A DNA stretch of 64,000 bases from the NCBI RefSeq assembly GCF_046105845.1, contig NZ_CP151004.1; one strand, given 5' to 3'. This document shows positions 3,293 through 59,729 of this stretch, piece by piece; within the stretch, counting starts at the first letter, position 1, and every line of letters starts with the position of its first letter. The DNA comes from Escherichia coli (GTDB lineage Bacteria > Pseudomonadota > Gammaproteobacteria > Enterobacterales > Enterobacteriaceae). The notes under the pieces are model-generated. The model searched no databases and was not told where the DNA came from. It worked only from the letters and a program-made list of their open reading frames with translations. Both the position numbers and the translations under genes were made by a program.

Positions 3293-3440
3293 TCCTCTGA
3301 TTTACAAAAGACGCTAATTCGTCTTCCATAAACCATGACGATTAAGATTTATACATAATGCGCTGCATTGAGGAATTCCCTGAATGTGACGCAAATCACT
3401 TCAAAGAGTGAGCAACAGTCAGTATCATCATGTGAGTTAA

Positions 3441-3474
3441 ACCCTCGCCGCCTGACGGTGAGGGTTTTCTTTTG
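3441..3474 (+). terminator. Candidate rho-independent terminator in the rna-rnk spacer
   Basis: Imperfect hairpin accctcgccg / cggtgagggt followed by tttcttttg, about 150 nt downstream of the rna stop. Confidence 0.5.
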
Positions 3475-3521
3475 GGTATGTTTATCTGCGACACTCGCAG
3501 TACCGACGACATGGAGTAAAA

Positions 3522-7136: not shown

Positions 7137-7507
7137 CTATACTTCCTCCGTGTTTTCGATGAGATGTAAGGTAACCAATTTTTGCCGATTCGGCTAATGC
7201 GTTTCCATTATCAAATCGATAAGTTTTACCTTACAACCTTCGTAAGACAACTTTGTGAACTTTGCACCGCCAGCGGCGATAAAAAGTAAAATGGCCCCCT
7301 TTCCAGGTGACCGTGTAATCTGAACTACCCTTTGGTATCTTCAGCGCCTGCCTGCAGGCTGAGGTGTTGCCCTTACAAATGCAACAACGACATGGATTAC
7401 AACACCCTCATAAACAAAGGGCAATCACCTGATCTAAGCTCTTACCTATGACAGTGATAGGTTATGCCTTTTACTCGACTTTTGCACTGACTGAAAAGGA
7501 CAAATTA
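7137..7507. promoter_or_regulatory. Divergent ahpC / dsbG control region (OxyR-regulated promoters expected here)
   Basis: Intergenic region between the divergently oriented ahpC and dsbG; OxyR control of ahpCF and dsbG is established knowledge. The exact operator was not mapped from the sequence. Confidence 0.4.
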
Positions 7508-19994: not shown

Positions 19995-21170
19995 TTAATG
20001 CAATCCAAAAACGTTCAACATGGTAGAAAGTTTGACGCCCGTTTCGCGCCACTCACCCAACGGTGACGACGCAGGCACAATCCCCGCTCCGGCAAACAGA
20101 CGCACCTGATTTTCCCGCAGCTTCGCGCAGCGGATGGTCACCACCCATTCACCGTTACCTTCGCTGTCACACCAACCCACAATGCCGCCAAACAGTTCGC
20201 GGTCGAACGGCTCCAGTTCAGCAATAACCTGAGTCGCGGCCTGATGCGGGAAACCGCTCAGCGCGGGGGTCGGATGCAGCAGACAGGCCAGAGTCAGTGC
20301 GTTTTCTTGCGAATTCGCTTTACCTTCAAAGGGAGTTGCGAGATGCCACAGCGTCGGCGTGGTGATCAGTTGTGGAGAAGAAGGAACGTGTAACTCACTA
20401 CTGCGTTCGCGCAATACCTCTTTCATCGCCTGAGTCACCAGTTCATGTTCATGGCGATCTTTTTCTGACGCCAACAGACGATTACCCGCTTCGCGATCGA
20501 GCACTTCATCCGGCTGACGACGCGCGGAACCGGCTAACGGAATGGAGCTAAAACGCTCGCCGTCTTTACGTAGCAGCAGTTCCGGGCTGGCCCCCAGCAG
20601 AACGCCACCATCAGCCAGCGGGACATGGAAGTTGTAACTAACCGGGTTTTGCGCAATCAACCGTTCCAGCAATACGCCACTATCAATGGCGGCGTCAGTG
20701 GTGATATCAATCAACCGTGACAACACCACTTTGTCGACCTGCGGCGTGGCGGTAAGTGCGGCGGCGCGAGCAACCATCTGTTCAAACGTGGCTTGTTCCG
20801 GAATTGCCTGGCGTTCCACCACGTTCAGCGACTGGCTGCGGGTAAAACGGCGGGCTGAAGATTGTTTTTCCTGGCGGGAGAACGACTGCCAGGATTCAGG
20901 AATATACAGCGATGAAGGCTGACGTGGATCGAAGGGAATCGCCCCGACCATCACCGGATTTTTGATGCCCTGCGCTTTGGCATCGGCAAACAGCGCGGCG
21001 AGTTTTTGCTGGAAGGGACTGTCGGGTGAATCCCCGTTCACAGCGGGTTCATCGAAGCGGGCGAAACATCCTGACGTCGTAAAACTGCGGTACGGCGACA
21101 TAAAGAAAAAGCGATTGGGCGCAAGTGTTGCCATGGTCTGCTGTACTTCCTCAGCCAGTGACGTATCCAT
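19995..21170 (-). CDS. entC: Isochorismate synthase EntC
   Basis: ORF 19995..21182 trimmed to MDTSLAEEV (391 aa). Confidence 0.93.
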
Positions 21171-21200
21171 ATCATCCTCCACAAAATGATAAAGGCTTTA

Positions 21201-21219
21201 ATAATGATTATCATTTATA
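21201..21219. promoter_or_regulatory. Fur box in the entC / fepB divergent promoter region
   Basis: aataatgattatcatttat closely matches the Fur consensus GATAATGATAATCATTATC; a weaker second match lies near 21315..21333 on the fepB side. Confidence 0.75.
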
Positions 21220-21358
21220 TTTTCGGTCGCTAACCTAAAAGCAAACGCGCACTATGTCAACTCTTGAGGTAACGCAATCTGCAACTCGGGGTTGCATCTG
21301 GTTGTGGTTACAATGAAAATGAGAAGCATTAACTTCATTAATAACAGGAAGCTGATTT

Positions 21359-22315
21359 GTGAGACTCGCCTCGCTCTACCGCAACGCCCTTCTATTAACA
21401 GGACTTTTGCTTTCAGGAATAGTCGCAGTTCAGGCCGCCGACTGGCCGCGTCAGATTACTGACAGCCGTGGCACTCATTCCCTGGAAAGCCAGCCGCAGC
21501 GTATTGTTTCCACCAGCGTCACCCTGACCGGCTCACTGCTGGCGATTGATGCTCCGGTGATTGCCAGCGGCGCGACCACGCCAAATAACCGCGTCGCGGA
21601 TGACCAGGGCTTTTTACGCCAGTGGAGCAAGGTGGCGAAAGAACGCAAACTGCAACGGCTCTATATCGGCGAACCGAGCGCCGAAGCGGTGGCCGCGCAA
21701 ATGCCGGATCTGATTTTAATCAGCGCAACCGGCGGCGATTCGGCGCTGGCGCTGTACGATCAGCTTTCCACCATCGCCCCGACATTAATCATCAATTACG
21801 ACGACAAAAGCTGGCAGTCGCTGTTAACGCAACTTGGCGAAATTACCGGGCATGAGAAACAAGCGGCAGAGCGGATTGCGCAGTTTGATAAGCAACTGGC
21901 GGCGGCGAAAGAGCAAATCAAATTACCGCCGCAGCCGGTCACGGCCATTGTCTATACCGCCGCTGCACACAGTGCCAATCTCTGGACGCCTGAATCAGCA
22001 CAAGGGCAGATGCTGGAACAACTCGGCTTTACGCTGGCGAAGTTGCCAGAAGGGTTAAACGCCAGCCAAAGCCAGGGCAAACGCCATGACATCATTCAGC
22101 TTGGTGGGGAAAATCTGGCGACGGGATTAAATGGCGAGTCACTATTCCTGTTCGCCGGTGATCAGAAAGACGCCGATGCGATTTATGCCAATCCACTGCT
22201 CGCGCACCTGCCTGCAGTACAAAACAAGCAGGTTTATGCGCTGGGAACCGAGACGTTCCGACTGGATTACTACAGCGCCATGCAAGTGCTGGAACGACTT
22301 AAGGCGCTGTTTTAA
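21359..22315 (+). CDS. fepB: Ferric enterobactin periplasmic binding protein FepB
   Basis: 318 aa ORF with signal peptide; synteny. Confidence 0.93.
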
Positions 22316-22318
22316 GCA

Positions 22319-23569
22319 TTAACTGTCGGACGCTGTCACCTGCGGCGGCGTCTGGCGAAAACGCCGCAACTCCACCAGCACCAGCAACAACAACACGCCG
22401 ATAATCAACAAACCAAAACCGCTCGCGCTTGCGGAAGCAACCGGTGTCATCATCGCTCCCAGACCGCCTAACAGCGCCGCGCCTATGGCATCGCCCGTCA
22501 CGTTTTGCGCCGTCCACAAACCGTTAATCCGCCCTAACATCGCTTCCGGGGTTTGCGTTTGCAGCATTGTGTATTGCAGCAACGAACTAACCGCGCTCAG
22601 CCAGCCGAACAGTGCCAGGCAAACCACGCCTAAAATCCACATCGGCATCAGGCCAAACAGACCAATGGCGAGGAACGATCCCAGCGTGGAGAGCAGCATC
22701 AATAACCCTGGTCGCGCGCTATGTGCCAGCTTCCCGCTGGTTAACGCGCCAATAGCCGCGCCGAGCGGGATCGCCGCATAGAGAAAACCAATCTGTGCCG
22801 CCGACATCTGCCAGTTGTCAGCCAGCGCCGGATACAGTACCCGCACCGCGCTCGCCATCGTCAATAAACCACCCAACAGCGCAATCCCTCCTACCAGCGG
22901 GCTGGCGAGCAGAAAACGAAATCCTGCCAGTAATGATTTCAACGGATGCTCACGCGGCTGAGGTGGCGGTGGCAACGCCGGAAGGCTTAATAACGGCAGC
23001 AAGGTAATAAACGTGCCCGCCGCCGCCAGCCCGTAGTTCCAGGCTACGCCGCCGGTCGCCAGCAATAAACCGCCAATCATGGGCGAAATCACCGACCCCA
23101 GGCGCACGGTCAACATGGTGATCGCCCCGGCCTGCATTAAGTTTTCACGCCCTACCAGTGCAGGTGTCGCCGCCAGTAGCGCCGTAACGCCAAGCGATGC
23201 GAAAAAACCATCCCATAATCCGAGTAAATAGATTGCCAGCAAAGATGGCTCCGGCAGCAGCGCGTTCAGGCACAGTCCAATGAAGCCAATGCCACAGGTG
23301 CCGCGCGCCAGCAAAATCACTTTTTTGCGCTCATAGCGATCCGCCAGCACACCGCCGACCATCAGGCCAACAAACATCGCGCCGCCGGTCAGCGTCACCG
23401 AAAGCCCCACCTGCCAGGTAGAATGCGTCATCATCTGGATCTGCACCGGCACCGCGACGCCGAGCAAACCCAGAGACACAATTGAGATAAAACGAGCGAG
23501 GAATACTGCGCGAAACGCCGGGTGCGTTTTCAACAGGCTGAGGTTAAGCAGCCAGGATTGTTTATTCAT
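22319..23569 (-). CDS. entS: Enterobactin exporter EntS (MFS)
   Basis: 416 aa MFS transporter ORF divergent from fepD. Confidence 0.93.
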
Positions 23570-23642
23570 TACAATGCCTTGCCATCAAATATTTTAAATA
23601 CCTATTCTTAGGCTGCACATGCTAACATATCCAAATAAGATC

Positions 23643-23667
23643 GATAACGATAATTAATTTCATTATC
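23643..23667. promoter_or_regulatory. Fur box in the entS / fepD divergent promoter region
   Basis: gataacgataattaatttcattatc, a Fur-box-like AT-rich dyad just upstream of the fepD start. Confidence 0.65.
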
Positions 23668-23679
23668 ATGGAAGTTCGT

Positions 23680-24684
23680 ATGTCTGGTTCTGTTGCCGTG
23701 ACACGCGCCATTGCCGTGCCCGGATTGCTGTTATTACTGATTATCGCGACGGCATTAAGCCTGCTCATTGGGGCAAAATCACTCCCCGCTTCCGTAGTGC
23801 TGGAGGCGCTCTCCGGCACCTGCCAGAGCGCCGACTGCACCATTGTGCTCGACGCCCGTCTGCCGCGCACCCTTGCCGGTTTACTGGCAGGCGGTGCGCT
23901 TGGGCTTGCCGGGGCGCTGATGCAAACCCTCACCCGAAACCCACTTGCCGACCCCGGCTTGCTTGGTGTGAACGCCGGAGCCAGCTTTGCCATTGTGCTG
24001 GGTGCGGCGCTGTTTGGTTACTCATCCGCGCAGGAACAACTGGCGATGGCCTTCGCCGGGGCGCTGGTGGCCTCATTGATTGTTGCCTTTACCGGCAGTC
24101 AGGGCGGAGGGCAGTTAAGTCCGGTGCGTTTAACCCTGGCGGGCGTGGCGCTGGCGGCGGTGCTGGAAGGGCTGACCAGCGGCATCGCCCTGCTTAATCC
24201 TGACGTCTACGATCAACTGCGTTTCTGGCAAGCCGGTTCGCTGGATATTCGTAATTTACACACCTTAAAAGTAGTGCTGATCCCGGTGCTGATCGCCGGA
24301 GTAACCGCGCTATTACTGAGCCGCGCACTGAACAGTTTAAGCCTTGGCAGTGACACCGCGACGGCGCTGGGCAGTCGCGTGGCGCGCACACAGTTGATTG
24401 GTCTGCTGGCGATTACCGTGCTTTGCGGTAGTGCAACGGCGGTAGTTGGCCCGATTGCCTTTATTGGCCTGATGATGCCGCACATGGCGCGCTGGCTGGT
24501 AGGTGCCGATCATCGCTGGTCGCTGCCCGTCACGCTACTTGCCACCCCTGCCCTGCTGCTGTTTGCCGATATCATCGGGCGGGTGATTGTGCCCGGCGAG
24601 TTGCGCGTTTCTGTGGTCAGTGCCTTTATTGGCGCACCGGTGCTGATCTTCCTCGTGCGACGTAAAACGCGAGGTGGCGCATGA
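23680..24684 (+). CDS. fepD: Ferric enterobactin ABC transporter permease FepD
   Basis: ORF 23668..24684 trimmed to MSGSVAVTRAIAV (334 aa). Confidence 0.92.
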   Translation: MSGSVAVTRAIAVPGLLLLLIIATALSLLIGAKSLPASVVLEALSGTCQSADCTIVLDARLPRTLAGLLAGGALGLAGALMQTLTRNPLADPGLLGVNAGASFAIVLGAALFGYSSAQEQLAMAFAGALVASLIVAFTGSQGGGQLSPVRLTLAGVALAAVLEGLTSGIALLNPDVYDQLRFWQAGSLDIRNLHTLKVVLIPVLIAGVTALLLSRALNSLSLGSDTATALGSRVARTQLIGLLAITVLCGSATAVVGPIAFIGLMMPHMARWLVGADHRWSLPVTLLATPALLLFADIIGRVIVPGELRVSVVSAFIGAPVLIFLVRRKTRGGA

Positions 24685-25673
24685 TTTACGTCTCTCGCCG
24701 ATTAATCATCACCTGTTTGCTGCTAATTACCGCCTGTGTGGTTGCAGGTATCTGGGGATTACGCAGCGGTACCGTCACGCTGGAAACCTCGCAGATATTC
24801 GCCGCGTTGATGGGCGATGCGCCGCGCAGTATGACGATGGTGGTCACCGAATGGCGTTTACCACGCGTGCTGATGGCGCTGTTAATTGGCGCGGCTCTGG
24901 GCGTCAGTGGCGCGATTTTTCAGTCGCTGATGCGTAACCCACTCGGCAGTCCTGACGTAATGGGCTTTAACACCGGGGCGTGGAGCGGCGTGCTGGTGGC
25001 GATGGTGCTGTTTGGTCAGGACCTGACGGCTATCGCCCTAGCAGCAATGGCGGGCGGCATTGTCACCTCGCTGCTGGTCTGGCTGCTCGCATGGCGTAAC
25101 GGCATCGACACCTTTCGGTTGATTATTATCGGTATCGGTGTTCGCGCCATGCTGGTGGCCTTTAATACCTGGCTGTTGCTGAAAGCGTCTTTAGAAACGG
25201 CACTAACAGCGGGTTTGTGGAATGCCGGATCGCTCAACGGCCTGACGTGGGCAAAAACCTCGCCTTCCGCACCCATCATTATATTGATGCTAATTGCCGC
25301 CGCCTTACTGGTACGCCGGATGCGCTTGCTGGAAATGGGCGATGATACCGCGTGTGCGCTGGGCGTCAGCGTCGAACGTTCGCGGCTATTAATGATGCTG
25401 GTCGCCGTAGTGCTTACCGCAGCTGCCACTGCCCTGGCGGGGCCGATTTCCTTTATTGCTTTAGTCGCGCCACACATTGCCCGGCGCATTAGCGGCACCG
25501 CTCGCTGGGGGCTGACCCAGGCGGCGCTGTGCGGGGCGTTGTTACTGCTGGCGGCCGATCTCTGCGCCCAACAACTGTTTATGCCGTATCAACTTCCGGT
25601 TGGCGTCGTTACCGTCAGCCTCGGCGGTATTTACCTTATCGTCTTGTTAATTCAGGAGTCTCGCAAAAAATGA
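24681..25673 (+). CDS. fepG: Ferric enterobactin ABC transporter permease FepG
   Basis: 330 aa ORF; 4-nt overlap with fepD. Confidence 0.93.
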   Translation: MIYVSRRLIITCLLLITACVVAGIWGLRSGTVTLETSQIFAALMGDAPRSMTMVVTEWRLPRVLMALLIGAALGVSGAIFQSLMRNPLGSPDVMGFNTGAWSGVLVAMVLFGQDLTAIALAAMAGGIVTSLLVWLLAWRNGIDTFRLIIIGIGVRAMLVAFNTWLLLKASLETALTAGLWNAGSLNGLTWAKTSPSAPIIILMLIAAALLVRRMRLLEMGDDTACALGVSVERSRLLMMLVAVVLTAAATALAGPISFIALVAPHIARRISGTARWGLTQAALCGALLLLAADLCAQQLFMPYQLPVGVVTVSLGGIYLIVLLIQESRKK

Positions 25674-26485
25674 CCGAATCAGTAGCCCGTTTGCGTGGCG
25701 AACAGTTAACCCTCGGATATGGCAAATATACCGTTGCGGAAAATCTGACTGTAGAAATTCCTGATGGTCACTTCACGGCAATTATCGGGCCAAATGGCTG
25801 CGGTAAATCCACGTTACTGCGTACCTTAAGCCGCCTGATGACGCCTGCTCACGGGCATGTCTGGCTGGATGGCGAGCACATTCAACATTACGCCAGTAAA
25901 GAGGTTGCACGCCGGATTGGCCTGTTGGCGCAAAACGCCACAACGCCGGGAGATATCACCGTGCAGGAGCTGGTGGCGCGTGGGCGTTACCCGCATCAAC
26001 CGCTGTTTACCCGCTGGCGCAAAGAAGATGAAGAAGCGGTAACGAAAGCGATGCAGGCCACGGGAATCACTCATCTGGCAGATCAAAGCGTGGATACCCT
26101 TTCTGGCGGACAACGCCAGCGAGCGTGGATAGCAATGGTGCTGGCCCAGGAAACGGCAATTATGCTGCTCGATGAACCAACGACCTGGCTGGATATCAGT
26201 CATCAGATTGATCTCCTGGAACTGTTAAGCGAACTGAACCGCGAGAAAGGCTATACCCTGGCGGCGGTGCTGCACGATCTTAATCAGGCCTGTCGTTACG
26301 CCAGCCATTTGATTGCATTGCGGGAAGGGAAAATTGTTGCTCAGGGAGCGCCGAAGGAGATTGTCACTGCTGAATTGATCGAGCGCATTTATGGTCTGCG
26401 CTGCATGATTATTGACGATCCGGTAGCCGGAACTCCGCTCGTGGTGCCGCTCGGACGAACGGCACCTTCAACTGCCAAGATTTAA
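25670..26485 (+). CDS. fepC: Ferric enterobactin ABC transporter ATPase FepC
   Basis: ORF 25529..26485 trimmed to MTESVARLRGEQL (271 aa); Walker A GPNGCGKST; ATGA overlap with the fepG stop. Confidence 0.93.
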   Translation: MTESVARLRGEQLTLGYGKYTVAENLTVEIPDGHFTAIIGPNGCGKSTLLRTLSRLMTPAHGHVWLDGEHIQHYASKEVARRIGLLAQNATTPGDITVQELVARGRYPHQPLFTRWRKEDEEAVTKAMQATGITHLADQSVDTLSGGQRQRAWIAMVLAQETAIMLLDEPTTWLDISHQIDLLELLSELNREKGYTLAAVLHDLNQACRYASHLIALREGKIVAQGAPKEIVTAELIERIYGLRCMIIDDPVAGTPLVVPLGRTAPSTAKI

Positions 26486-27615
26486 ACTAAGTGCTCTTCC
26501 ATCACGGCATCCTGTTTTCTGGATGCCATCGCATGGCGCAACAGCACGCCACCACAAGCCACCATCCCGCCGATCATCGCAGAAAGGATCACAATAATCG
26601 CCTTACCCGGACCATCTTTTTTCACTGGCAATGACGGGCTTAACTGATATTTAAACGGCGTAAAATTCACATCGTTGATATTTGCTTTTGTTAGCTGCTC
26701 AACAAGATACTGACGATTACGTAATTCACCGTTCAGTTCCGCAACGTCAGTGACCGCTTTTTCAATTTCCAGTTTGCGTTCAATACCGTCTGCGCCGAGA
26801 GAAATAGAGAAATCGGGGTCATCTTTAACGGCCTGACCATTACTGTAAACGGGCTTTTTAATTCCTGCCGCGTTGGCAATGTCGAGTGAATAATTGAGGC
26901 GCTGAATGTTTGCATCAAGTTGATTTTTCGTTTTAATGCGATCCTGAGCCAGTTTTTCTTTTTCAAACTGGGTTTTGATCTCCAGTTTATTACGGACGTT
27001 TTCTATCGACTCTTTCACCACCAACGCAGAGATATAATCGATATACCCGCTCAAAACGGTCTGCGCCTCTTCACTGGTTGGCGCGGTAAAACTTAGCGTC
27101 CAGGAGGTATACAGTGACGGTTCATCTTTTTTCTTACTGGCATTGTCATCAACCGCTTTCATTTTTTCGCTCAATGCGACAATTGCGCGATGCAAATCCA
27201 GTTCGTCGATTTTCGCCTCTTTTAATTGGTCCATCACATAAGGTGTTGAGCGCAGGTACTCTTCCAGCAAGCTAACCGACTGAAACTTCTTGATAAACAG
27301 GTTAAATGCTTCTGTACGATCAATTTTGATATCCAGATCCAGCACACGAAGCTTAGTGAATGTTTTCTCAAGCGCCTGCCACTGAACAGGTTCTGGAGGC
27401 GTGACAACCGCCGCGCTGGTCCATTTTTGCGGCAGGATGAAAGAGATCAGTAAACCTGCGCAGGCAAATGCAAAAATGACCGCCATGACCGTTTTTTTGG
27501 CCCGCCATAAAACTGCGATTAGATTAAGTAAATCAATTTCATTATTACTGGGCGACGCCAGAGGATACTCGGGAAAATGAGTGTCACTTCCCTGTTTAAT
27601 ATTCAGTGATGACAT
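26482..27615 (-). CDS. fepE: Polysaccharide co-polymerase (Wzz-like) FepE
   Basis: 377 aa ORF recognised as FepE. Confidence 0.9.
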   Translation of the reverse strand: MSSLNIKQGSDTHFPEYPLASPSNNEIDLLNLIAVLWRAKKTVMAVIFAFACAGLLISFILPQKWTSAAVVTPPEPVQWQALEKTFTKLRVLDLDIKIDRTEAFNLFIKKFQSVSLLEEYLRSTPYVMDQLKEAKIDELDLHRAIVALSEKMKAVDDNASKKKDEPSLYTSWTLSFTAPTSEEAQTVLSGYIDYISALVVKESIENVRNKLEIKTQFEKEKLAQDRIKTKNQLDANIQRLNYSLDIANAAGIKKPVYSNGQAVKDDPDFSISLGADGIERKLEIEKAVTDVAELNGELRNRQYLVEQLTKANINDVNFTPFKYQLSPSLPVKKDGPGKAIIVILSAMIGGMVACGGVLLRHAMASRKQDAVMEEHLV

Positions 27616-27769
27616 GGGGTATAACCTGAAAATGAGTCCAATAGGGGGAAATCTCCACGGCGCTCACTTTACCAGTTGGTGAGAATTATCCGAAGCTGAA
27701 GTTTGTAAATTCCTTCCACTGAATGCAACATTCACTCTATTTAAGAGCAATATCCACCAAACTTATAAA

Positions 27770-27815
27770 TTAAATAAATGATAAACCCATAATCATTTCC
27801 AGTAATTATGGGTTT
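27770..27815 (-). terminator. Rho-independent terminator downstream of entF
   Basis: Perfect 11-bp inverted repeat aaacccataat / attatgggttt (27783..27815) followed on the minus strand by a U-rich tract, 16 nt after the entF stop. Confidence 0.55.
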
Positions 27816-27830
27816 ATGGATAATATTAAT

Positions 27831-30800
27831 TTACCTGTTTAGCGTAGCGCGAATAATCGGCCCAATTTTTTCAAACGCCACCGGAGAGATAATATCCACA
27901 TGCGCACAATCCTGACGATAGATATCCAGCTCAGCAATCCACGGTGCCCAGGCCTGTTCAGGACTCATACCTTCCTGAAGCGTGCGTTCGGCAACAAATA
28001 GCGTCGCTTTACCATCAAACGGTACGCTATGAGCTGTCGTCAGCAGGCGCACAGCATCAGCGTAGTTGCCTTCAATGGTGGTAAACAACTCCGTTGAAGT
28101 ACTTCCCTGCTGTGCCGCCAGGAAGGCTTCGCGCTCGCGGTTAATCTCCGCCAGCACTTCCGGGTCCAGACCATTGGCTTCTTTTTCCTGCCAGTTTTGC
28201 GTTTCTGGCGGCCAGGTATCCAGCAAGCCAAGAAATGCCACCTGTTCGCCACGGGCACGCAGCCGCGCCGCAATACCCTGCGCCAGCGTACCGCCCAGCG
28301 AATAACCCAGCAGGTAATAAGGGCCGTGCGGTTGATGCTCAAGTAACGTTGCCAGATGCGCTTCGCAGACTTCATCCAGATTTGCCGCGGTCTGCATGGG
28401 GCCATTGGGGCGCGGCGACTGAATGCCGATAATCGACCATTGTGGATCGAGATAACGCGAGAGCACGCTGAACTGCCAGGCAAAACCGGACGCAGGATGG
28501 AAACAAAACAGCGTCGGGCCATTACCTTCACGCAACGGCAGAATGGTTTCGAATCCCATGCGCTGGGTGCTGTCTTCTTCACCATCAATAATCGTTGCCA
28601 GTTTGGCGACGGTTGATGCGACCATCACCTGCCCCGGCGTCACCTGACGGGCAAAGTGTCGACTTAACTGCGCTGCCAGTTTCATTGCCAGTAGCGAATG
28701 ACCGCCAAGCGCGAAGAAATCAGCATCGGCATCCTGCACGTCACAACCCAGCAACGACGAGAATGCCGCGGCGATAATCGTTTCACTGCCCGCTTTCGGC
28801 GCACGCCCCGGCGCTTGTGCCTTCAGTTCAGGCAACGGTAAGGCTTTGCGATCCAGCTTGCCGTTGGCGCTAAGCGGCAACTGCGGAAGTTGCAGCAGAA
28901 CCACGGGCACCATATGCGGTGGCAATGTTTCGCGCAACTGCGCCTGCAATGCGCTGGTATCCAACGGCAGGCCCGATTGCGACACCAGATAGCCCACCAA
29001 CTGACGCGCATCGCCTCCCGTTGCGGCAGCCTGGTTAATGACGCAGGCGTGGGTCACGGCTTGTTCGACATCCGGCAGCGCCTGCATCACGCGATCGATT
29101 TCGCCCAGTTCGATACGCTGCCCGCGAATTTTTAGCTGATCGTCACTGCGCCCGAGGTACTCCACCGCGCCGTTATCCAGCCAGCGGGCAACGTCTCCGG
29201 TACGGTACATCCGTTCACCAGGGGCAAAAGGATCGGCAATAAAGCGGCTGGCGGTCAGATCGGGTCGTCCAAGATACCCCTGCGCCAGTTGTATGCCAGT
29301 GAGATAGAGATCTCCCGCCACACCCGGCGGCACCGGATGCATCATCGCATCAAGAATACGCAGGCCCGTATTCCACACCGGATAACCAATCGGCACACTG
29401 CTGCCGCGCACCTGTGCCAGTTCCTCGCCAAAAGCCGGATACCAGCTGACATCTACCGCCGCTTCCGTCGGGCCATATAGATTATGCAACGGCACGCTGG
29501 TTAACTGTTGCCATTCGCGGCATAAATCAGCGGGTAAGGCCTCACCACTACAGAAAACCTGTTTCAACGTCGCGCAATTCTGGCGAGCGGTTTGCGGAGT
29601 CAGCGATGCAACAAAAGCTGCCAGCATCGACGGCACAAAGTGCGTGGTCGTTACGCCATATTCGGCAAAGAATTGCTGCATAGCGAGCGGGTCGCGGTGC
29701 GCTTCCGGTTCAGCCATCACCAGTTTAGCCCCGGCAATAAACGGCCAGAAAAACTCCCACACCGAGACATCAAAACTGCACGGCGTTTTTTGGGCAACGA
29801 CATCTTCGCCTGTAAGCGGGTAGTGGTTTTGCATCCAAAGCAGGCGGTTAACGATAGCCGTCTGCCCGACCATTACCCCTTTCGGCCTGCCGGTAGAGCC
29901 AGAGGTAAAGATGATATAAGCCGTGTGGTGCGGTTGTGAAAGTTTCAGCGGCGCACTGCCCTGCGGTGTAAGCGGGGCGTTATAGCAAAGGCGGGTTAAA
30001 TCTGGAACATCGGCAAAGCGCGGCAGTTGATCGTCGGTGGTGATTAACAGCGACGGACGCGCATCTTCCAGCATCATTTTCAGGCGATCGTCCGGATAGC
30101 CGGTATCCAGCGGTAACCAGGCCGCACCAGCCTCAACAATTGCATGTAGCGCCAGAGTCAAAAAGACCGAGCGCGGTAGCGCCACCGCCACGCTGTCGCC
30201 TGGTTTAACGCCGCGCTCACGCAGCAGATTCGCCAGCGCCACCACCTGCTCGCGCATTTCCCGATAGCTAAACTGGTAACTCGCATCAACCAGCGCCGGA
30301 GCATGCGGTGTTTTTGCCGCCTGTTCCGCCACCAGCGCGCTCAGCGTGGTTTCTGGAATCTCAACCTGAGTGGCGTTGATCTGCGCCAGCTGCACATATT
30401 CACCTGGCAGCATAATATCGACATCGCCGCACAACAGCGCCGGATCCGCGGCGAACTGGGCAATCAGCATTTTCAGGCGTTCAGCGTGTTGAATTAACGT
30501 TGGCTCATCGTAACGCTGTTTATTGGCGAGGATCTCAATACTCAAATCACCGTGTTCATCCGGGAACAGTGCCAGTTCAAGGTCATTAACCGGACCGGTT
30601 GCCAGGGTATGGGTTTGCGCCTGAACACCAGGAATATCCAGTTGGTAATCAAATACCTTGATATTGAGTACCGGACCAAACAGCGGTTCATCACCTGCCG
30701 CTCGCCCGCTGTCACGGACAATTTGTTCGGCATCGTAACGTTGATGACGACGCATTTTTTTCAGTTGTGCTGCCAGTCGGGTTGCCAGTTGCGGCAGCGT

Positions 30801-31712
30801 TTCTTGCGCCTCAATATGAATACCCAACGGCAAAACGTTGAGCACGGGTCCGGTAGCCGTCAGCGCCGCCGAGCCCAGTCGACGCATAAAGATAAATCCG
30901 GCGGCGTAGTCCATGCGATTGCACAATCGCCCCAGCCATAAGGCCACCAGCGCAAGGGCTAAATCGGTACGCTGCACACCTGAAAGTTGCGTAGCCAGCT
31001 GGCGGAATTCCCCGTCAGTAAATTCCAGTTTCAGGCGAAGAATATCTGCCGAAGCGCTGCGCCCCGGTAAAGGTGCCGGAGAAAGTGACGCGGGCGGCGG
31101 CAATTGACGACGCTGTTCCGCCCAGAATGCCGCATCACGCTGCCAGGCTTCGCTTTCGCGGTATTGCTGGTACTCTTCCACTACATCAGCGAAAGGCGTA
31201 AACGGCGAAGCAGGCGTTGGTTCGCCACGCAGCCATGCGCAGTAAATATTGGCGATCTGGCGGGTAATGGCCGGGAAACTGAAGCCATCGACCAGCAAAT
31301 GGTGATAACGCTGATACCAGTACCAGCGGTTATCCGCCACCTGTATCAACTGATGAAAGACCAGTGGTTTACCGCTATCGACGCGCAGATCTTGTTGCAA
31401 ATCCGCCTGCATTAATGCCCGCGCAGTACCGTGCGGATCAATGTTGGTTCGCAGGTCGATAATTTCTGGCAGTTCGAACGTCAGCGCATCATCGACCCAC
31501 TGCCAGACTTCGCCGTTATCTTCCGTAAAACGCATCCGCAGCGTATCTGCTTGCGCTAATCCGGCAACCACCGCGCGGGCCAGTAATGGCGCATCAACCT
31601 CTCCGGTTAACTCAACGTAATGCGCCACGCTCCAGGCGGAGGGTAAATCCGACAGTTTTTCTGCCATCCAGATGCCGGGCTGTGCGGCGACCAAAGGTAA
31701 ATGCTGGCTCAT
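27831..31712 (-). CDS. entF: Enterobactin non-ribosomal peptide synthetase EntF (C-A-PCP-TE)
   Basis: ORF 27831..31850 trimmed to MSQHLPLVAAQPGIWMAEKL (1293 aa); adenylation and thioesterase motifs present; ATGA overlap with the ybdZ stop. Confidence 0.95.
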   Translation of the reverse strand: MSQHLPLVAAQPGIWMAEKLSDLPSAWSVAHYVELTGEVDAPLLARAVVAGLAQADTLRMRFTEDNGEVWQWVDDALTFELPEIIDLRTNIDPHGTARALMQADLQQDLRVDSGKPLVFHQLIQVADNRWYWYQRYHHLLVDGFSFPAITRQIANIYCAWLRGEPTPASPFTPFADVVEEYQQYRESEAWQRDAAFWAEQRRQLPPPASLSPAPLPGRSASADILRLKLEFTDGEFRQLATQLSGVQRTDLALALVALWLGRLCNRMDYAAGFIFMRRLGSAALTATGPVLNVLPLGIHIEAQETLPQLATRLAAQLKKMRRHQRYDAEQIVRDSGRAAGDEPLFGPVLNIKVFDYQLDIPGVQAQTHTLATGPVNDLELALFPDEHGDLSIEILANKQRYDEPTLIQHAERLKMLIAQFAADPALLCGDVDIMLPGEYVQLAQINATQVEIPETTLSALVAEQAAKTPHAPALVDASYQFSYREMREQVVALANLLRERGVKPGDSVAVALPRSVFLTLALHAIVEAGAAWLPLDTGYPDDRLKMMLEDARPSLLITTDDQLPRFADVPDLTRLCYNAPLTPQGSAPLKLSQPHHTAYIIFTSGSTGRPKGVMVGQTAIVNRLLWMQNHYPLTGEDVVAQKTPCSFDVSVWEFFWPFIAGAKLVMAEPEAHRDPLAMQQFFAEYGVTTTHFVPSMLAAFVASLTPQTARQNCATLKQVFCSGEALPADLCREWQQLTSVPLHNLYGPTEAAVDVSWYPAFGEELAQVRGSSVPIGYPVWNTGLRILDAMMHPVPPGVAGDLYLTGIQLAQGYLGRPDLTASRFIADPFAPGERMYRTGDVARWLDNGAVEYLGRSDDQLKIRGQRIELGEIDRVMQALPDVEQAVTHACVINQAAATGGDARQLVGYLVSQSGLPLDTSALQAQLRETLPPHMVPVVLLQLPQLPLSANGKLDRKALPLPELKAQAPGRAPKAGSETIIAAAFSSLLGCDVQDADADFFALGGHSLLAMKLAAQLSRHFARQVTPGQVMVASTVAKLATIIDGEEDSTQRMGFETILPLREGNGPTLFCFHPASGFAWQFSVLSRYLDPQWSIIGIQSPRPNGPMQTAANLDEVCEAHLATLLEHQPHGPYYLLGYSLGGTLAQGIAARLRARGEQVAFLGLLDTWPPETQNWQEKEANGLDPEVLAEINREREAFLAAQQGSTSTELFTTIEGNYADAVRLLTTAHSVPFDGKATLFVAERTLQEGMSPEQAWAPWIAELDIYRQDCAHVDIISPVAFEKIGPIIRATLNR

Positions 31713-31927
31713 TGCACCTCCTGCAACTGGGTGAAATTCGACGGTGTCAGAGTACGCCAGTGGGCTTCCAGCCACTGCTGGCAGGACGCCTGTGACTGCG
31801 GCTGACACACAACGTCCCAGCCTGCCGGTAAGGCGCATTGTTGCGGCCACAGACTGAATTGCCCCTGCGCATTGCGCAAAATGTAAAACGCTCCCTGCGG
31901 ATCATCGAAGGGATTACTGAATGCCAT
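31709..31927 (-). CDS. ybdZ: MbtH-like protein YbdZ
   Basis: ORF 31709..31933 trimmed to MAFSNPFDDPQGAF (72 aa), between fes and entF. Confidence 0.9.
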   Translation of the reverse strand: MAFSNPFDDPQGAFYILRNAQGQFSLWPQQCALPAGWDVVCQPQSQASCQQWLEAHWRTLTPSNFTQLQEVQ

Positions 31928-31929
31928 AT

Positions 31930-33132
31930 TCAACTCCTGTCATGGAAAAGTGGTTGCCAGAGGTCGATTAGCCCCTGCATCAAGCCACCGCGCCAACAAA
32001 GCGCATCATGTCCGCCGTCAACCTGACGCCAGAAAATGGATTCTTTTATAGGGTGTAATTGCGCATACAGCGCCTGATTGGCCCGCATGATCATCGGCTC
32101 GCGAATACCCGCTTCCAGCACAATGCGCAGACCTTCGGCGCTAACTTGACCAGCTTTAAGTTGCTCAAGTAAAACACCTTCTTGCTGCCCGCCCCGATGC
32201 GGCCACCAGTACGATCCTGACTGGCTTAATACACAGCCAAAGCGTTCAGGCCAGTGCAGTCCGGCATACAGCGCGGACAGCCCACCAAAACTCTGCCCGG
32301 CGACCACGGTGCGATCGGCGCGATCGCTAAAAGGGGCAATAGCTTTCACCAGGGGTAATAACTCTTGCTGTACTGCCAGCCAGAAATCCGCATTACACGG
32401 CAGTTCGTGGGCGCGGTGCGTGGTGTCGATAGCGTCGATCAACACATACACGGCGGGAGGAAGTTGCTGACGATGGGTCAGCGAAGTCAGCACAGGCCAG
32501 ACGGGCATACTCTGCGCCCAAAATTCACCATCAAGCAAAACTGCCAGCGGGCGTTCTTCTGCTGTTGCATCGCCGGTGGTAAAAATCCATACACGGCGTG
32601 AATTTTTCAACCGTTCACTTTTCCAGATAATTTCTTTGGCAGGCGTTTCTGGCGCTTGCGGACAATCCCATCCCGGTTGCAGAGGCGCTTGCGGCATTTC
32701 GAGTGCAGAAACAGCGTGCCCTCGCCCGCCTTTCCAGCTTTGTGGATTCAGCGGATCGGCTATCGCCTGGGGTAATAGTTTTCGCCAGCCTTCACGTAAT
32801 TCGAGGCGATCGGGGGATGGTGCAGAAAAAATGTCATCGCGTTCGGTGGGAATAAAACAGTAGCTGCCGCGCCAGTTGGCATTAAGTTGTGTCGTCCACT
32901 GCCAGACGTTGGTACCTGCAATTCGCTGCATCGACTGGGGCTGGCTGTTCTGATGGTGATCGGTCACACCAGTGATGTAGACCCATACGCGCTTTATCGT
33001 CGAGTATTCTTCAGAACCTTGGGGATCACGCCACCAGAAAGTGACCTCAAACATTTCGTCATTCAGACGCTGCCATTCCGGGCCATGTTTCGACTGCCAC
33101 CAGCTCTCACTTCCTACTTTTAACGCCGTCAC
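31930..33132 (-). CDS. fes: Enterobactin esterase Fes
   Basis: 400 aa ORF recognised as Fes; the start codon choice is uncertain (longest ORF used). Confidence 0.9.
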   Translation of the reverse strand: MTALKVGSESWWQSKHGPEWQRLNDEMFEVTFWWRDPQGSEEYSTIKRVWVYITGVTDHHQNSQPQSMQRIAGTNVWQWTTQLNANWRGSYCFIPTERDDIFSAPSPDRLELREGWRKLLPQAIADPLNPQSWKGGRGHAVSALEMPQAPLQPGWDCPQAPETPAKEIIWKSERLKNSRRVWIFTTGDATAEERPLAVLLDGEFWAQSMPVWPVLTSLTHRQQLPPAVYVLIDAIDTTHRAHELPCNADFWLAVQQELLPLVKAIAPFSDRADRTVVAGQSFGGLSALYAGLHWPERFGCVLSQSGSYWWPHRGGQQEGVLLEQLKAGQVSAEGLRIVLEAGIREPMIMRANQALYAQLHPIKESIFWRQVDGGHDALCWRGGLMQGLIDLWQPLFHDRS

Positions 33133-33176
33133 ACCATAACCCCATGTTTACTGTGCAATTTTTTATTGATTGCAGA

Positions 33177-33217
33177 AATATATTGATAATATTATTGATA
33201 ACTATTTGCATTTGCAA
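33177..33217. promoter_or_regulatory. Overlapping Fur boxes in the fes / fepA divergent promoter region
   Basis: aaatatattgataatattattgataactatttgcatttgcaat contains tandem GATAAT-type Fur hexamers. Confidence 0.75.
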
Positions 33218-33374
33218 TAGCGTAATGGCGCGCCGTGGGAAGCGCGGACATTAATTAACCAACTGCACTGCGTGTCTTTCAGGATCAAAGGTTTTCGCGG
33301 TAGCGGGATGCGTCGTGTTGATGACGACCATGCCCGACAGTTGCAATTCGTGGCAAAAATGCAGGAATAAAACA

Positions 33375-35615
33375 ATGAACAAGAAGATTCATTCCCTGGC
33401 CTTGTTGGTCAATCTGGGGATTTATGGGGTAGCACAGGCACAAGAGCCAATCGATACTCCTGTTTCACATGACGATACCATTGTCGTTACCGCCGCCGAG
33501 CAGAACTTGCAGGCACCTGGCGTTTCGACCATCACCGCAGATGAAATCCGCAAAAACCCGGTTGCCCGCGATGTGTCGGAGATCATCCGTACCATGCCAG
33601 GCGTTAACCTGACCGGTAACTCCACCAGTGGTCAGCGTGGTAATAACCGCCAGATTGATATTCGCGGCATGGGTCCGGAAAACACGCTGATTTTGATTGA
33701 CGGCAAGCCGGTAAGCAGCCGTAACTCGGTGCGTCAGGGCTGGCGTGGCGAGCGCGATACCCGTGGTGATACCTCCTGGGTGCCACCTGAAATGATTGAA
33801 CGTATTGAAGTTCTGCGTGGTCCGGCAGCTGCGCGTTATGGCAACGGCGCGGCGGGCGGCGTGGTTAACATCATTACCAAAAAAGGCAGTGGTGAGTGGC
33901 ACGGCTCGTGGGACGCATATTTCAATGCGCCAGAACATAAAGAGGAAGGTGCCACCAAACGCACTAACTTTAGCCTCACCGGTCCGCTGGGCGACGAATT
34001 CAGCTTCCGCTTGTATGGCAACCTCGACAAAACTCAGGCTGACGCGTGGGATATCAACCAGGGCCATCAGTCCGCGCGTGCCGGAACGTATGCCACGACG
34101 TTACCAGCCGGGCGCGAAGGGGTAATTAACAAAGATATTAATGGCGTGGTGCGCTGGGACTTCGCGCCTCTGCAATCACTCGAACTGGAAGCGGGCTACA
34201 GCCGCCAGGGTAACCTGTATGCGGGCGACACCCAGAACACCAACTCTGACTCCTATACCCGCTCGAAATATGGCGATGAAACCAACCGTCTGTATCGCCA
34301 GAACTACTCGCTGACATGGAACGGCGGCTGGGATAACGGCGTGACCACCAGCAACTGGGTGCAGTACGAACACACCCGTAACTCGCGTATTCCGGAAGGT
34401 CTGGCGGGCGGTACCGAAGGGAAATTTAACGAAAAAGCGACACAGGATTTCGTCGATATCGATCTCGATGACGTGATGCTGCACAGCGAAGTTAACCTGC
34501 CGATTGATTTCCTCGTTAACCAGACGCTGACGCTGGGTACGGAGTGGAATCAGCAGCGGATGAAGGATTTAAGTTCCAACACCCAGGCGCTGACCGGAAC
34601 GAATACCGGTGGCGCTATTGATGGCGTGAGTGCCACCGACCGTAGCCCGTATTCAAAAGCAGAAATTTTCTCGCTGTTTGCCGAAAACAACATGGAGCTG
34701 ACTGACAGCACCATCGTAACGCCGGGGCTGCGTTTCGATCATCACAGTATTGTCGGCAATAACTGGAGCCCGGCGCTGAACATATCGCAAGGTTTAGGCG
34801 ATGACTTCACGCTGAAAATGGGCATTGCCCGTGCTTATAAAGCGCCGAGTCTGTACCAGACTAACCCGAACTACATTCTCTACAGTAAAGGTCAGGGCTG
34901 CTATGCCAGCGCGGGCGGCTGCTATCTGCAAGGTAACGATGACCTGAAAGCGGAAACCAGCATCAACAAAGAGATTGGTCTGGAGTTCAAACGCGACGGC
35001 TGGCTGGCGGGCGTCACCTGGTTCCGTAACGATTATCGCAATAAGATTGAAGCGGGCTATGTGGCTGTAGGGCAAAACGCAGTCGGCACCGATCTCTATC
35101 AGTGGGATAACGTGCCGAAAGCGGTGGTTGAAGGTCTGGAAGGATCGTTAAACGTACCGGTTAGCGAAACGGTGATGTGGACTAATAACATCACTTATAT
35201 GCTGAAGAGTGAAAACAAAACCACGGGCGACCGTTTGTCGATCATCCCGGAGTATACGTTGAACTCAACGCTGAGCTGGCAGGCACGAGAAGATTTGTCG
35301 ATGCAAACGACCTTCACCTGGTACGGTAAGCAGCAGCCGAAGAAGTACAACTATAAAGGTCAGCCAGCGGTTGGCCCGGAAACCAAAGAAATCAGTCCTT
35401 ACAGCATTGTGGGTCTGAGCGCGACCTGGGATGTGACGAAGAATGTCAGTCTGACCGGCGGCGTGGACAACCTGTTCGACAAACGTTTGTGGCGTGCGGG
35501 TAATGCCCAGACCACGGGCGATCTGGCAGGGGCCAACTATATCGCCGGTGCCGGGGCGTATACCTATAACGAGCCGGGACGTACGTGGTATATGAGCGTA
35601 AACACCCACTTCTGA
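33375..35615 (+). CDS. fepA: TonB-dependent ferric enterobactin outer membrane receptor FepA
   Basis: ORF 33315..35615 trimmed to the MNKKIHSLALLVNLGIYGVAQA signal peptide (746 aa); ends in the terminal aromatic residue typical of beta-barrels. Confidence 0.95.
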   Translation: MNKKIHSLALLVNLGIYGVAQAQEPIDTPVSHDDTIVVTAAEQNLQAPGVSTITADEIRKNPVARDVSEIIRTMPGVNLTGNSTSGQRGNNRQIDIRGMGPENTLILIDGKPVSSRNSVRQGWRGERDTRGDTSWVPPEMIERIEVLRGPAAARYGNGAAGGVVNIITKKGSGEWHGSWDAYFNAPEHKEEGATKRTNFSLTGPLGDEFSFRLYGNLDKTQADAWDINQGHQSARAGTYATTLPAGREGVINKDINGVVRWDFAPLQSLELEAGYSRQGNLYAGDTQNTNSDSYTRSKYGDETNRLYRQNYSLTWNGGWDNGVTTSNWVQYEHTRNSRIPEGLAGGTEGKFNEKATQDFVDIDLDDVMLHSEVNLPIDFLVNQTLTLGTEWNQQRMKDLSSNTQALTGTNTGGAIDGVSATDRSPYSKAEIFSLFAENNMELTDSTIVTPGLRFDHHSIVGNNWSPALNISQGLGDDFTLKMGIARAYKAPSLYQTNPNYILYSKGQGCYASAGGCYLQGNDDLKAETSINKEIGLEFKRDGWLAGVTWFRNDYRNKIEAGYVAVGQNAVGTDLYQWDNVPKAVVEGLEGSLNVPVSETVMWTNNITYMLKSENKTTGDRLSIIPEYTLNSTLSWQAREDLSMQTTFTWYGKQQPKKYNYKGQPAVGPETKEISPYSIVGLSATWDVTKNVSLTGGVDNLFDKRLWRAGNAQTTGDLAGANYIAGAGAYTYNEPGRTWYMSVNTHF

Positions 35616-36531: not shown

Positions 36532-36684
36532 CTACTTCTTCGGTTCGTAAGCGAGAACAGCCTTAAACTCAATATTACGTTCCTTCACCGTAAACTCACA
36601 CAGCGAGTCTCCGACCAGAAGCGTAAATCCCAGCACCGTTAAACACAGCACTATGACTGCCACAAGGGCATATTTCGTCAGCAT
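36532..36684 (-). CDS. hokE: Type I toxin Hok-family protein HokE, copy 1 (50 aa)
   Basis: [50 protein letters not shown]; Hok-family hallmarks (single TM, LCE and AYEP motifs); recognised as HokE. Confidence 0.9.
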
Positions 36685-36784
36685 GTTTATATTGCCTCCA
36701 TGCGAAGAAGGGACTACCATCCAAATTGTTCAGGTTTGGGTAGGTAGCCCCAGGGTTGATAGAAATATCGTCCTGGGGCTTCAT
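36596..36784 (-). CDS. mok-like overlapping reading frame (modulator of killing), copy 1
   Basis: 62-codon frame starting upstream of and overlapping hok in another frame, as in hok/mok/sok loci; GGAAAG Shine-Dalgarno upstream. Confidence 0.6.
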
Positions 36785-36790
36785 CTTTCC
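36727..36790 (+). ncRNA. sokE: Candidate Sok-type antisense RNA, copy 1 (boundaries approximate)
   Basis: Plus-strand promoter-like TTGCCT-17 nt-TACCAT at 36692..36720, then a single-stranded stretch and a hairpin ccccagg / cctgggg (36749..36779) with a U-rich tail, antisense to the mok start region. Predicted from sequence architecture only. Confidence 0.35.
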
Positions 36791-37035
36791 AGACCTCAGA
36801 GTTAACCTGAAACCGGAAAGCTTCAGGCACCCGCCGTTATCTTACCCTTCCTCAGCAAAATAGCTGTTTATTTATACAGTGAATCCTGTTTCGGACTTCT
36901 GTTGGCAAAACTGATCATTGCCCTTAAAACGACATCGCCCGCAGCCATTGCTGACCGCGGGCGAAAGTGTAAAACAGGTGCCTTACCACCCTGACCTGAC
37001 AACCGGATATGCGGGGATTACTCCCCGCACAACGG

Positions 37036-37188
37036 CTACTTCTTCGGTTCGTAAGCGAGAACAGCCTTAAACTCAATATTACGTTCCTTCACCGTAAACT
37101 CACACAGCGAGTCTCCGACCAGAAGCGTAAATCCCAGCACCGTCAAACACAGCACTATGACTGCCGCAAGGGCATATTTCGTCAGCAT
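37036..37188 (-). CDS. hokE: Type I toxin Hok-family protein HokE, copy 2 (50 aa, one V-to-A difference from copy 1)
   Basis: [50 protein letters not shown]; intact frame. Confidence 0.88.
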
Positions 37189-37288
37189 GTTTATATTGCC
37201 TCCATGCGAAGAAGGGACTACCATCCAAATTGTTTGGGTTTGGAGTGGCAGCCCCAGGGTTGATAGAAATATCGTCCTGGGGCTTCAT
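37100..37288 (-). CDS. mok-like overlapping reading frame, copy 2
   Basis: 62-codon frame overlapping hok copy 2; differs from copy 1 in its N-terminal part (GAATPNPNN versus GATYPNLNN). Confidence 0.55.
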
Positions 37289-37294
37289 CTTTCC
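37231..37294 (+). ncRNA. sokE: Candidate Sok-type antisense RNA, copy 2 (boundaries approximate)
   Basis: Same promoter-like element and hairpin as copy 1; the predicted 5-prime tail carries 5 substitutions relative to copy 1. Confidence 0.3.
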
Positions 37295-37622
37295 AGACCT
37301 CAGAGTTAACCTGAAACCGGAAAGCTTCAGGCACCCGCCGTTATCTTACCCTTCTTCAGCAAAATGGCTGTTTATTTATACAGTGAGTCCTGTTTCGGAC
37401 TTCTCAATCCTCATTTGATCAACTGAAGCTGAACCCGTTTTTTTTCTGCATGCCTCAATCGTCAAAATTCTTCGCCACCAGTCCGCACTGCCATAACTTG
37501 TCATATTGCAAAATGTAGCCAATTTGCTTCAGTCACCATCATCAAAAAAAGAAACATTCCAGAACTTCCGCATCTCGCCCAGTCGCTCCCACTTCTATAC
37601 TGAATAGAAAACGCCAACATAA

Positions 37623-58765: not shown

Positions 58766-58842
58766 GAAGAAAAAATGGCGCGCCCTGCAGGATTCGAACC
58801 TGCGGCCCACGACTTAGAAGGTCGTTGCTCTATCCAACTGAG
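58766..58842 (-). tRNA. argU: tRNA-Arg (anticodon UCU)
   Basis: Reverse complement reads GCGCCCTTAGCTCAGTTGGATAGAGCAACGACCTTCTAAGTCGTGGGCCGCAGGTTCGAATCCTGCAGGGCGCGCCA, a canonical cloverleaf with encoded CCA and anticodon TCT. Confidence 0.95.
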
Positions 58843-59094
58843 CTAAGGGCGCGTTGATACCGCAATGCGGTGTAATCGCGTGAATTATACGGTCAACCCT
58901 TGCTGAGTCAATGGCTTTTGATCTGGTTGCTGAACAAGTGAACGACCGCGTCTGATTTTCTGATTTATTTCGCTATAGCGGCAAACAAACGCACACCGCT
59001 GCGCGTCTGAATCAAGAAAACCCGTATTTTCATGTATCAAAGTACAATTTCCCGACCTAACGGAAAATTGTCCGATCCAATGAGACTGGTAACT

Positions 59095-59727: not shown

Positions 59728-59729
59728 TA

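Follow-up and report, generated by a model that had tools for sequence, protein, structure and literature searches.

The window, a stretch of 64,000 nucleotides of Escherichia coli DNA, contains the enterobactin (ent/fep) cluster. A 601-bp query taken around the fes/fepA site matches 5414 of 5426 complete E. coli genomes, where it is annotated as fes/fepA, and the full ent/fep/fes set is present in the K-12 order (entD-fepA / fes-ybdZ-entF / fepE / fepCGD / entS / fepB / entCEBAH). That order is shared with the MG1655 and ST2747 annotations and appears here in reverse-complement orientation, so that the window reads cstA, entH-A-B-E-C (minus strand), fepB (plus), entS (minus), fepD-G-C (plus), fepE, entF-ybdZ-fes (minus) and fepA-entD (plus). 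Every ent/fep reading frame is full length, with open reading frame lengths that agree with K-12 and ST2747; entS and fepG, both frameshifted in ST2747, are intact in the window. The genes that flank the three divergent control regions are as follows.

19995-21170, minus strand: entC, first gene of entCEBAH
21359-22315, plus strand: fepB, with a GTG start
22319-23569, minus strand: entS (enterobactin exporter), intact
23680-24684, plus strand: fepD, first gene of fepDGC
31930-33132, minus strand: fes (enterochelin esterase), first gene of fes-ybdZ-entF
33375-35615, plus strand: fepA (ferric enterobactin receptor), 746 codons

Over the 12.35-kb ent/fep segment as a whole (21100-33450), the highest identity to any of the 5426 complete E. 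coli genomes is 98.4%, and identity to most of them is about 96.6%, which makes the source a somewhat unusual lineage, or a mosaic, at the ent/fep locus, despite control regions that are essentially identical to those of K-12.

Fur sites were scored with a position weight matrix built from 18 K-12 Fur sites, all at loci outside the ent/fep cluster (fhuA, pdeL, gpmA, oppA, nohA, fadD, yoeA, cirA, exbB, ryhB, sodA, fecI, fecA, fhuF, fiu, sufA, bfd and mntH). For their centres we used Table 4 of Chen et al. 2007 (PMC2189734), moving the NC_000913.2 coordinates to NC_000913.3 and checking each by its stated distance to a gene start. The training sites align in the 7-1-7 register AATGATAATnATTATCATT, and their leave-one-out scores run from 17.2 to 28.8 bits, with a median of 21.9; the matrix is not fully independent of the cluster, since the choice and register of the sites come from a published model that was itself partly trained on ent sites (PMC2189734). 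Among the approximately 64,000 positions of the window, the three highest scores fall at 21197-21215 (24.9 bits), 23646-23664 (20.5 bits) and 33194-33212 (17.5 bits), all inside the range of the validated or canonical training sites. These are the sites of the original prediction, which had placed Fur boxes at 21201-21219 (entC/fepB), 23643-23667 (entS/fepD) and 33177-33217 (fes/fepA). The scores are close to those of Chen et al. 2007 (23.1, 19.4-20.1 and 18.7; PMC2189734), and the absolute values differ slightly because our matrix was rebuilt from the 18 sites outside the cluster.

The Fur motif is itself AT-rich and the three regions contain 31-42% G+C, so that a resemblance arising by chance from AT-rich intergenic promoter DNA has to be considered; a 15.6-bit match in AT-rich DNA between fimZ and sfmF, past the 3' ends of both and with no promoter expected, speaks for it. 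However, dinucleotide-preserving shuffles of the window (n=200) give a mean of 0.065 sites of at least 17 bits against the three observed, and composition-matched local shuffles of each AT-rich intergenic region seldom score as high as the real sequence (0 of 2000 trials, 0.1% and 0.05%). Only three of the 32 AT-rich segments in the window, those of the predicted sites, exceed 17 bits; the remaining 29 reach 15.6 bits at most, and 28 of these no more than 10.2. Together with conservation, in which the position of the sites relative to the start codons is kept across at least 60 species, and with sequences identical to footprinted K-12 operators, the shuffles already refute chance resemblance, to which we give practically no weight.

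A scan with the classical Fur 19-mer, GATAATGATAATCATTATC, is less even in its result. Matches with four mismatches or fewer occur at only four places in the 64 kb: 21200-21218 (4), 21315-21333 (4), 23643-23661 (4) and 23649-23667 (3). The last two jointly make up the predicted 23643-23667 exactly, and the first places the predicted entC/fepB site, which is real, one base out of register. The best fes/fepA match, at 33197-33215, has six mismatches, so that the description of all three sites as close matches to the consensus holds for entC (4 mismatches) and entS/fepD (3-4) but not for fes/fepA. We nonetheless rejected the classical scan as a refutation of the fes/fepA site, where it does no better than at about 25 other six-mismatch matches, as both the 7-1-7 matrix and the hexamer arrays single the site out. 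Indeed, GATAAT-ATTATT-GATAAC at 33185-33202 (16/18) is the top 3-hexamer array in the 64 kb and TATATT-GATAAT-ATTATT-GATAAC at 33179-33202 (20/24) the top 4-hexamer array, which bears out the tandem hexamers that had been described there.

The features of the fes/fepA control region are these.

33177-33224, no strand: fes/fepA Fur operator, the equivalent (by alignment) of the single K-12 footprint that controls fes-ybdZ-entF and fepA-entD
33194-33212, no strand: best Fur 19-mer of the operator, ATTGATAACTATTTGCATT, 17.5 bits by the matrix
33185-33202, no strand: hexamer array GATAAT-ATTATT-GATAAC, from the hexamer analysis
33166-33195, plus strand: fepA promoter-like element, TTGATT / 18-nt spacer / TATTAT, inferred from hexamer match
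33217-33212 and 33194-33189, minus strand: candidate fes promoter, TTGCAA / 17-nt spacer / TAATAT, a reading of the sequence with 8/12 matches, below the tool threshold

Weaker sites overlap the best one; they are centred on 33191 (8.1 bits) and 33197 (4.2 bits), at distances of 12 and 6 bp from its centre. The candidate fes -10 overlaps the putative fepA -10, and the two promoter elements are consistent with the fes and fepA transcription start sites reported 19 bp apart. A generic promoter scan of the control regions returned only weak 9/12 matches, not clearly above those in shuffles, and the promoter positions given here and below derive from hexamer matches and cross-species conservation. 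Relative to the K-12 fepA-fes region, the 48-bp footprint and the distances to both start codons are the same, and the single substitution in the 242-bp spacer lies outside the operator; nothing relevant differs. The K-12 element has reportedly been described as a bidirectional promoter-operator by Pettis (1988), by Hunt, Pettis and McIntosh (1994) and by Escolar et al. (1998). The centre of the best site, 33203, corresponds to position 611889 of Chen et al. (PMC2189734) and lies 172 bp upstream of the fepA start.

The entC side of the entC/fepB spacer and the fepD/entS spacer contain the following.

21176-21224, no strand: Fur operator of entC (entCEBAH), 'Fur box 2', a K-12 footprint with identical sequence
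21197-21215, no strand: best Fur 19-mer of the window, TTTAATAATGATTATCATT, 24.9 bits by the matrix
21233-21261, minus strand: putative entC promoter, -35 TTGACA 21261-21256 and -10 TAGGTT 21238-21233, from a reading of the sequence, with hexamers conserved in 60 species
23630-23698, no strand: fepD/entS Fur operator, equivalent of the K-12 footprint, with identical sequence

In the entC operator, the best 19-mer is overlapped by sites at 21203-21221 (15.2 bits) and 21185-21203 (9.9 bits), and the classical entC box ATAAATGATAATCATTAT is the reverse complement of 21201-21218. The operator sits just downstream of the predicted start site, and Fur box 2 is likewise described in the literature as lying downstream of its +1, -10 and -35. 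The core sites of the fepD/entS operator are spaced 6 bp apart, at 23640-23658 (12.6 bits), 23646-23664 (20.5 bits) and 23652-23670 (6.3 bits). The 110-bp fepD/entS spacer is identical to that of K-12 and shows no difference from its fepDGC-entS (ybdA) bidirectional operator, which is reportedly the subject of Christoffersen et al. (2001) and Lavrrar et al. (2002). The operator has its site centre at 23655, or 25 bp and 86 bp upstream of fepD and entS, respectively, in agreement with published values (PMC2189734).

Although the original prediction correctly placed sites in all three divergent regions, the operators number four. The entC/fepB spacer holds two separate, non-overlapping operators, of which the predicted site is the entC one only, and the fepB box at 21309-21339 was overlooked. 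Its features are listed here.

21309-21339, no strand: fepB Fur operator, 'Fur box 1', a K-12 footprint, identical over 21309-21331 and divergent thereafter
21292-21320, plus strand: putative fepB promoter, -35 TTGCAT 21292-21297, 17-nt spacer, -10 GAAAAT 21315-21320, from hexamers conserved in 60 species

The fepB operator contains two sites 6 bp apart, 21312-21330 (10.2 bits) and 21318-21336 (11.1 bits), against a training-site minimum of 17.2. Its putative promoter overlaps the Fur box, and Fur box 1 is described in the literature as overlapping its -10 and -35. TACAAT at 21309-21314, unlike GAAAAT, is not conserved in the 60 species. Overall, conserved -35 and -10 hexamers flank or overlap each operator, in agreement with the published architecture, and the operators share a common internal organization. 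Site centres fall at 21194, 21206, 21209 and 21212 (entC), 21321 and 21327 (fepB), 23649, 23655 and 23661 (fepD/entS), and 33191, 33194, 33197 and 33203 (fes/fepA), for a spacing within operators that is mostly 6 or 12 bp, with weak additional sites 3 bp off. The window operators thereby share the clustering of overlapping 19-bp sites with the 7-1-7 and hexamer descriptions and with the Fur site-cluster model, in which overlapping 19-bp sites are offset by 3 or 6 bp (Chen et al. 2007, PMC2189734).

Direct evidence of Fur binding comes from K-12. Table 3 of Chen et al. 2007 (PMC2189734) supplied the footprint coordinates, given on NC_000913.2, with an offset of +777 to NC_000913.3 that we verified by gene starts. 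The K-12 DNase I footprints (PMC2189734) at fepA-fes (611868-611915), entC (624054-624102), fepB (623939-623969) and fepD-entS (621394-621462) map to 33177-33224, 21176-21224, 21309-21339 and 23630-23698 of the window. All three predicted Fur-box sequences are present and enclosed by mapped footprints, 33177-33217 by the first of these intervals, 21201-21219 by the second and 23643-23667 by the last, and the published strongest-site centres (611889, 624072 and 621437) convert to 33203, 21206 and 23655, which are exactly the three maxima of the matrix scan. In the alignment to K-12, 300 of 301 positions are identical at fes/fepA and all 160 aligned positions at entS/fepD, and entC/fepB is identical up to 21331, where an indel follows; the control regions are thus those of K-12 save for one substitution outside an operator and the fepB-leader indel. 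ChIP-exo in MG1655 places Fur peaks at all four operators, and fepA, fes, entC, entS, fepD and fepB belong to a 36-gene core Fur regulon whose repression is lost in nine E. coli strains when fur is deleted, with derepression of 2.5-6.6 log2 for these genes in MG1655. Binding at the window's operators is assigned through their identity to this footprinted and ChIP-exo-mapped K-12 DNA, an identity that for the fepB operator extends to only 23 of 31 bp. With the full-length ent/fep frames, these data uphold the reading of the sites as those of the enterobactin regulon.

The operators are also conserved, both within the species and beyond it. When the window is aligned with eight other, diverse E. 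coli (nine in all, 96.0-98.4% identical overall), none of the 49 columns of the entC footprint and none of the 48 columns of the fes/fepA footprint vary, against 7-14% of columns in neighbouring coding sequence and 2.5-3.7% across the three Fur-controlled spacers. Purifying selection, as judged from these columns, appears to act on the entC and fes/fepA footprints, and we count it as support for the operators. Footprint-equivalent sequence is identical in 5293 (entC), 5055 (fepD/entS) and 4951 (fes/fepA) of the 5426 genomes (91-98%). Across genera, a scan of a single genome for each species, with a conserved N-terminal motif of entC as its anchor, gave 77 loci, 66 of them usable, from Citrobacter, Enterobacter, Klebsiella, Salmonella, Leclercia, Lelliottia, Kosakonia, other Escherichia species and others. 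In 64 of the 66 species loci the entC ATG has a site of at least 17 bits 34-37 bp upstream of it (median 24.0 bits), and all 14 loci that extend to the entS/fepD spacer have one of at least 20.5 bits at 25-26 bp upstream of fepD. The one locus that reaches fes/fepA beyond Escherichia, from Pluralibacter, carries ATTGATAACTATTTTCATT at 23.7 bits. Position and score are conserved across genera for the entC, fepB and fepD/entS sites; for fes/fepA, the cross-genus support comes from this single locus.

Conservation of this kind might reflect something other than Fur. The blocks could be kept mainly as core promoters, or as sites for other AT-binding proteins, with the Fur score a by-product and Fur not the main regulator. 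The fes/fepA and fepB operators do overlap -10 and -35 hexamers, so that promoter function could conserve part of them, and the fepB site scores only about 11 bits. In the 60-species comparison, the conserved blocks resolve the promoter and operator elements of the entC/fepB spacer. They comprise the entC leader and operator (21171-21224), the entC -10 (21231-21238), the entC -35 TTGACA (21256-21262), the fepB -35 TTGCAT (21292-21298) and the fepB -10 with its Fur box (21315-21335). The entC operator, however, lies outside the promoter hexamers, downstream of the start, yet is both the best-conserved block and the top match to the matrix, and the fepD/entS cluster sits between the promoters and the start codons (PMC2189734). 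Added to the footprints, the ChIP-exo peaks and the derepression in the MG1655 fur deletion, this makes it very improbable that promoter function or other AT-binding proteins are the main reason for the blocks, and we are highly confident that the sites are the four Fur operators of the E. coli enterobactin cluster, spread across three divergent control regions.

The fepB operator is the one place where the window departs from K-12. The fepB box reads AAAATGAGAAGCATTAAC in the window versus AAAATGAGAAGCATTATT in K-12, the operators being ...GAGAAGCATTAACTTCATT in the former and ...GAGAAGCATTATTGATGGA in the latter. The footprint diverges after 21331 because K-12 carries an insertion there. In MG1655, 186 bp are inserted into the fepB 5' leader straight after ...GAGAAGCA (window 21328-21340 versus K-12 segment 18537-18724). 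Within the inserted DNA are two inverted motifs of the triplex-forming BoxC/PIT/TMECO type, each matching the published consensus (CCCTCNCCC-N3-6-GGGNGAGGG-N3-GGGNGAGGG) exactly and flanked together by a 24-nt imperfect inverted repeat; the same consensus has zero matches in the window. The last 8 bp of the K-12 footprint come from the insertion (...CATTATT, versus ...CATTAAC in the window), and the site scores 17.6 bits in K-12 versus 11.1 bits in the window. In contrast, K-12 and the window do not differ in the entC box ATAAATGATAATCATTAT, on the entC side as a whole or in the initial 23 bp of the fepB footprint. The entC-fepB spacer is 374 bp long in K-12 and 188 bp in the window, leaving the window with a fepB leader 186 nt shorter, and we infer leaders of about 30 nt for the window allele versus about 220 nt for the allele with the insertion.

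Both alleles are common in the species, the insertion allele being found in 2722 and the window allele in 2628 of the 5426 complete genomes. Beyond it, the spacer measures 173-189 bp in 60 of the 66 other enterobacterial species, and in 39 of the 66 the box AATGAGAAGCATTAAC.. has its centre 31 bp upstream of the fepB start, with 47 in the range of 29-31 bp. This short spacer and conserved box position argue that the window allele is, by comparison across species, the ancestral form and the K-12 allele the derived one.

This brings us to the alternative that survives best, which holds that the operators are intact but that iron regulation is nonetheless altered in the source strain, through either a defective fur or a fepB region that lacks the insertion and is unlike that of K-12. 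The fur gene lies outside the 64-kb window, and the fepB operator scores 6.5 bits below its K-12 counterpart, in addition to the shorter leader. To our knowledge, however, fur is almost universally intact in E. coli, which we count against a defective copy. As for fepB, the insertion-free arrangement is the ancestral one, with the short spacer of the 60 species, and fepB is derepressed by 3.5 log2 in the fur deletion of O157:H7 Sakai and by 4.2 in that of CFT073, versus 2.6 in MG1655. The O157:H7 strain and the B2 (ST131) strain in our alignment are both without the insertion. The idea that a weaker fepB site means weaker Fur control is unsupported by the nine-strain fur-deletion data, and, since derepression in Sakai and CFT073 is at least that of MG1655 and O157:H7 and B2 relatives are insertion-free, our analysis gives no sign that the ancestral fepB allele escapes Fur. 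Altered iron regulation is, in our estimation, improbable, if less so than the readings weighed above. A narrower possibility is that the fepB operator known from K-12 textbooks is chimeric, with its promoter-distal 8 bp and about 6.5 bits of predicted Fur affinity supplied by the BoxC/TMECO insertion, and that the two alleles could differ in Fur repression or in leader-dependent fepB expression; we regard this as worth raising, but on balance doubtful.

Returning to the four Fur operators, the general pathway for iron regulation of the cluster can be outlined. When iron is sufficient, Fe2+-Fur dimers would bind the overlapping 19-bp (7-1-7) units, mostly at 6-bp offsets and on different faces of the helix, and would polymerise along the AT-rich operator. 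At fes/fepA, a single operator over back-to-back, overlapping promoters would block RNA polymerase and shut off both operons jointly. At entC the operator separates the promoter from the ATG, just past the start site, and Fur would block initiation or early elongation there, and at fepB a separate, weaker operator over the -10 region would block RNA polymerase at the promoter. The fepD/entS operator, between the two start codons, would serve both directions, again by blocking initiation or early elongation. When iron is low, Fur would lose its metal and leave the DNA, and the six transcription units would be derepressed. Sequence identity, matrix scores, statistics and conservation were computed here, and Fur binding and fur-dependent expression are taken from the literature on the identical K-12 sequence; the same Fur regulation would be expected in the source strain.

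The Fur operators of this window are an already known, ordinary, textbook case. Their significance reaches little beyond annotation, in that the enterobactin cluster of the strain carries the standard, conserved Fur control elements, so iron-repressible siderophore production can presumably be assumed. The one point that is not trivial concerns fepB, where K-12 has a derived, insertion-bearing operator and leader and the window has the ancestral allele. This calls for some caution, as the K-12 fepB control region, used as a reference and in expression vectors, is the derived insertion allele, and the K-12-type form is absent from about half of E. coli genomes and from 60 of the 66 Enterobacteriaceae species sampled.

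Several minor observations concern the remainder of the window. The fourth-best cluster in the matrix scan, at 59708-59757, has sites of 15.6, 10.5, 9.3 and 7.7 bits at multiples of 3 bp and a local-shuffle frequency of about 0.01. Its 15.6-bit site (59723-59741) occupies a very AT-rich stretch between fimZ and sfmF, whose 3' ends converge there, so the cluster is not in a promoter. Nor does it correspond to the MG1655 ChIP-exo peak that has been published for sfmF; the position of that peak is about 0.6 kb off, in the 3' end of sfmH. At 27525-27549, within the 5' part of the fepE reading frame, two weak Fur-like 19-mers spaced 6 bp apart (9.4 and 6.8 bits) stay inside chance expectation for the window. 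The fepE-entF intergenic region (27616-27830) is hypervariable, with 49% of columns varying among the nine E. coli and indels in two strains. An Rfam scan gave no matches in the control regions and several elsewhere, including the rnk leader (3368-3476, 125 bits), the STnc70 sRNA (7281-7374, 44 bits, barely over threshold) and a tRNA (58779-58852) that related genomes annotate as tRNA-Arg. Finally, two sok-antitoxin matches (84 and 80 bits) lie on the minus strand at 36676-36832 and 37180-37336, about 500 bp apart between entD and ybdK, which suggests two tandem hok/sok-type loci at a position where K-12 has a single hokE/sokE beside IS186 and ST2747 has IS150.
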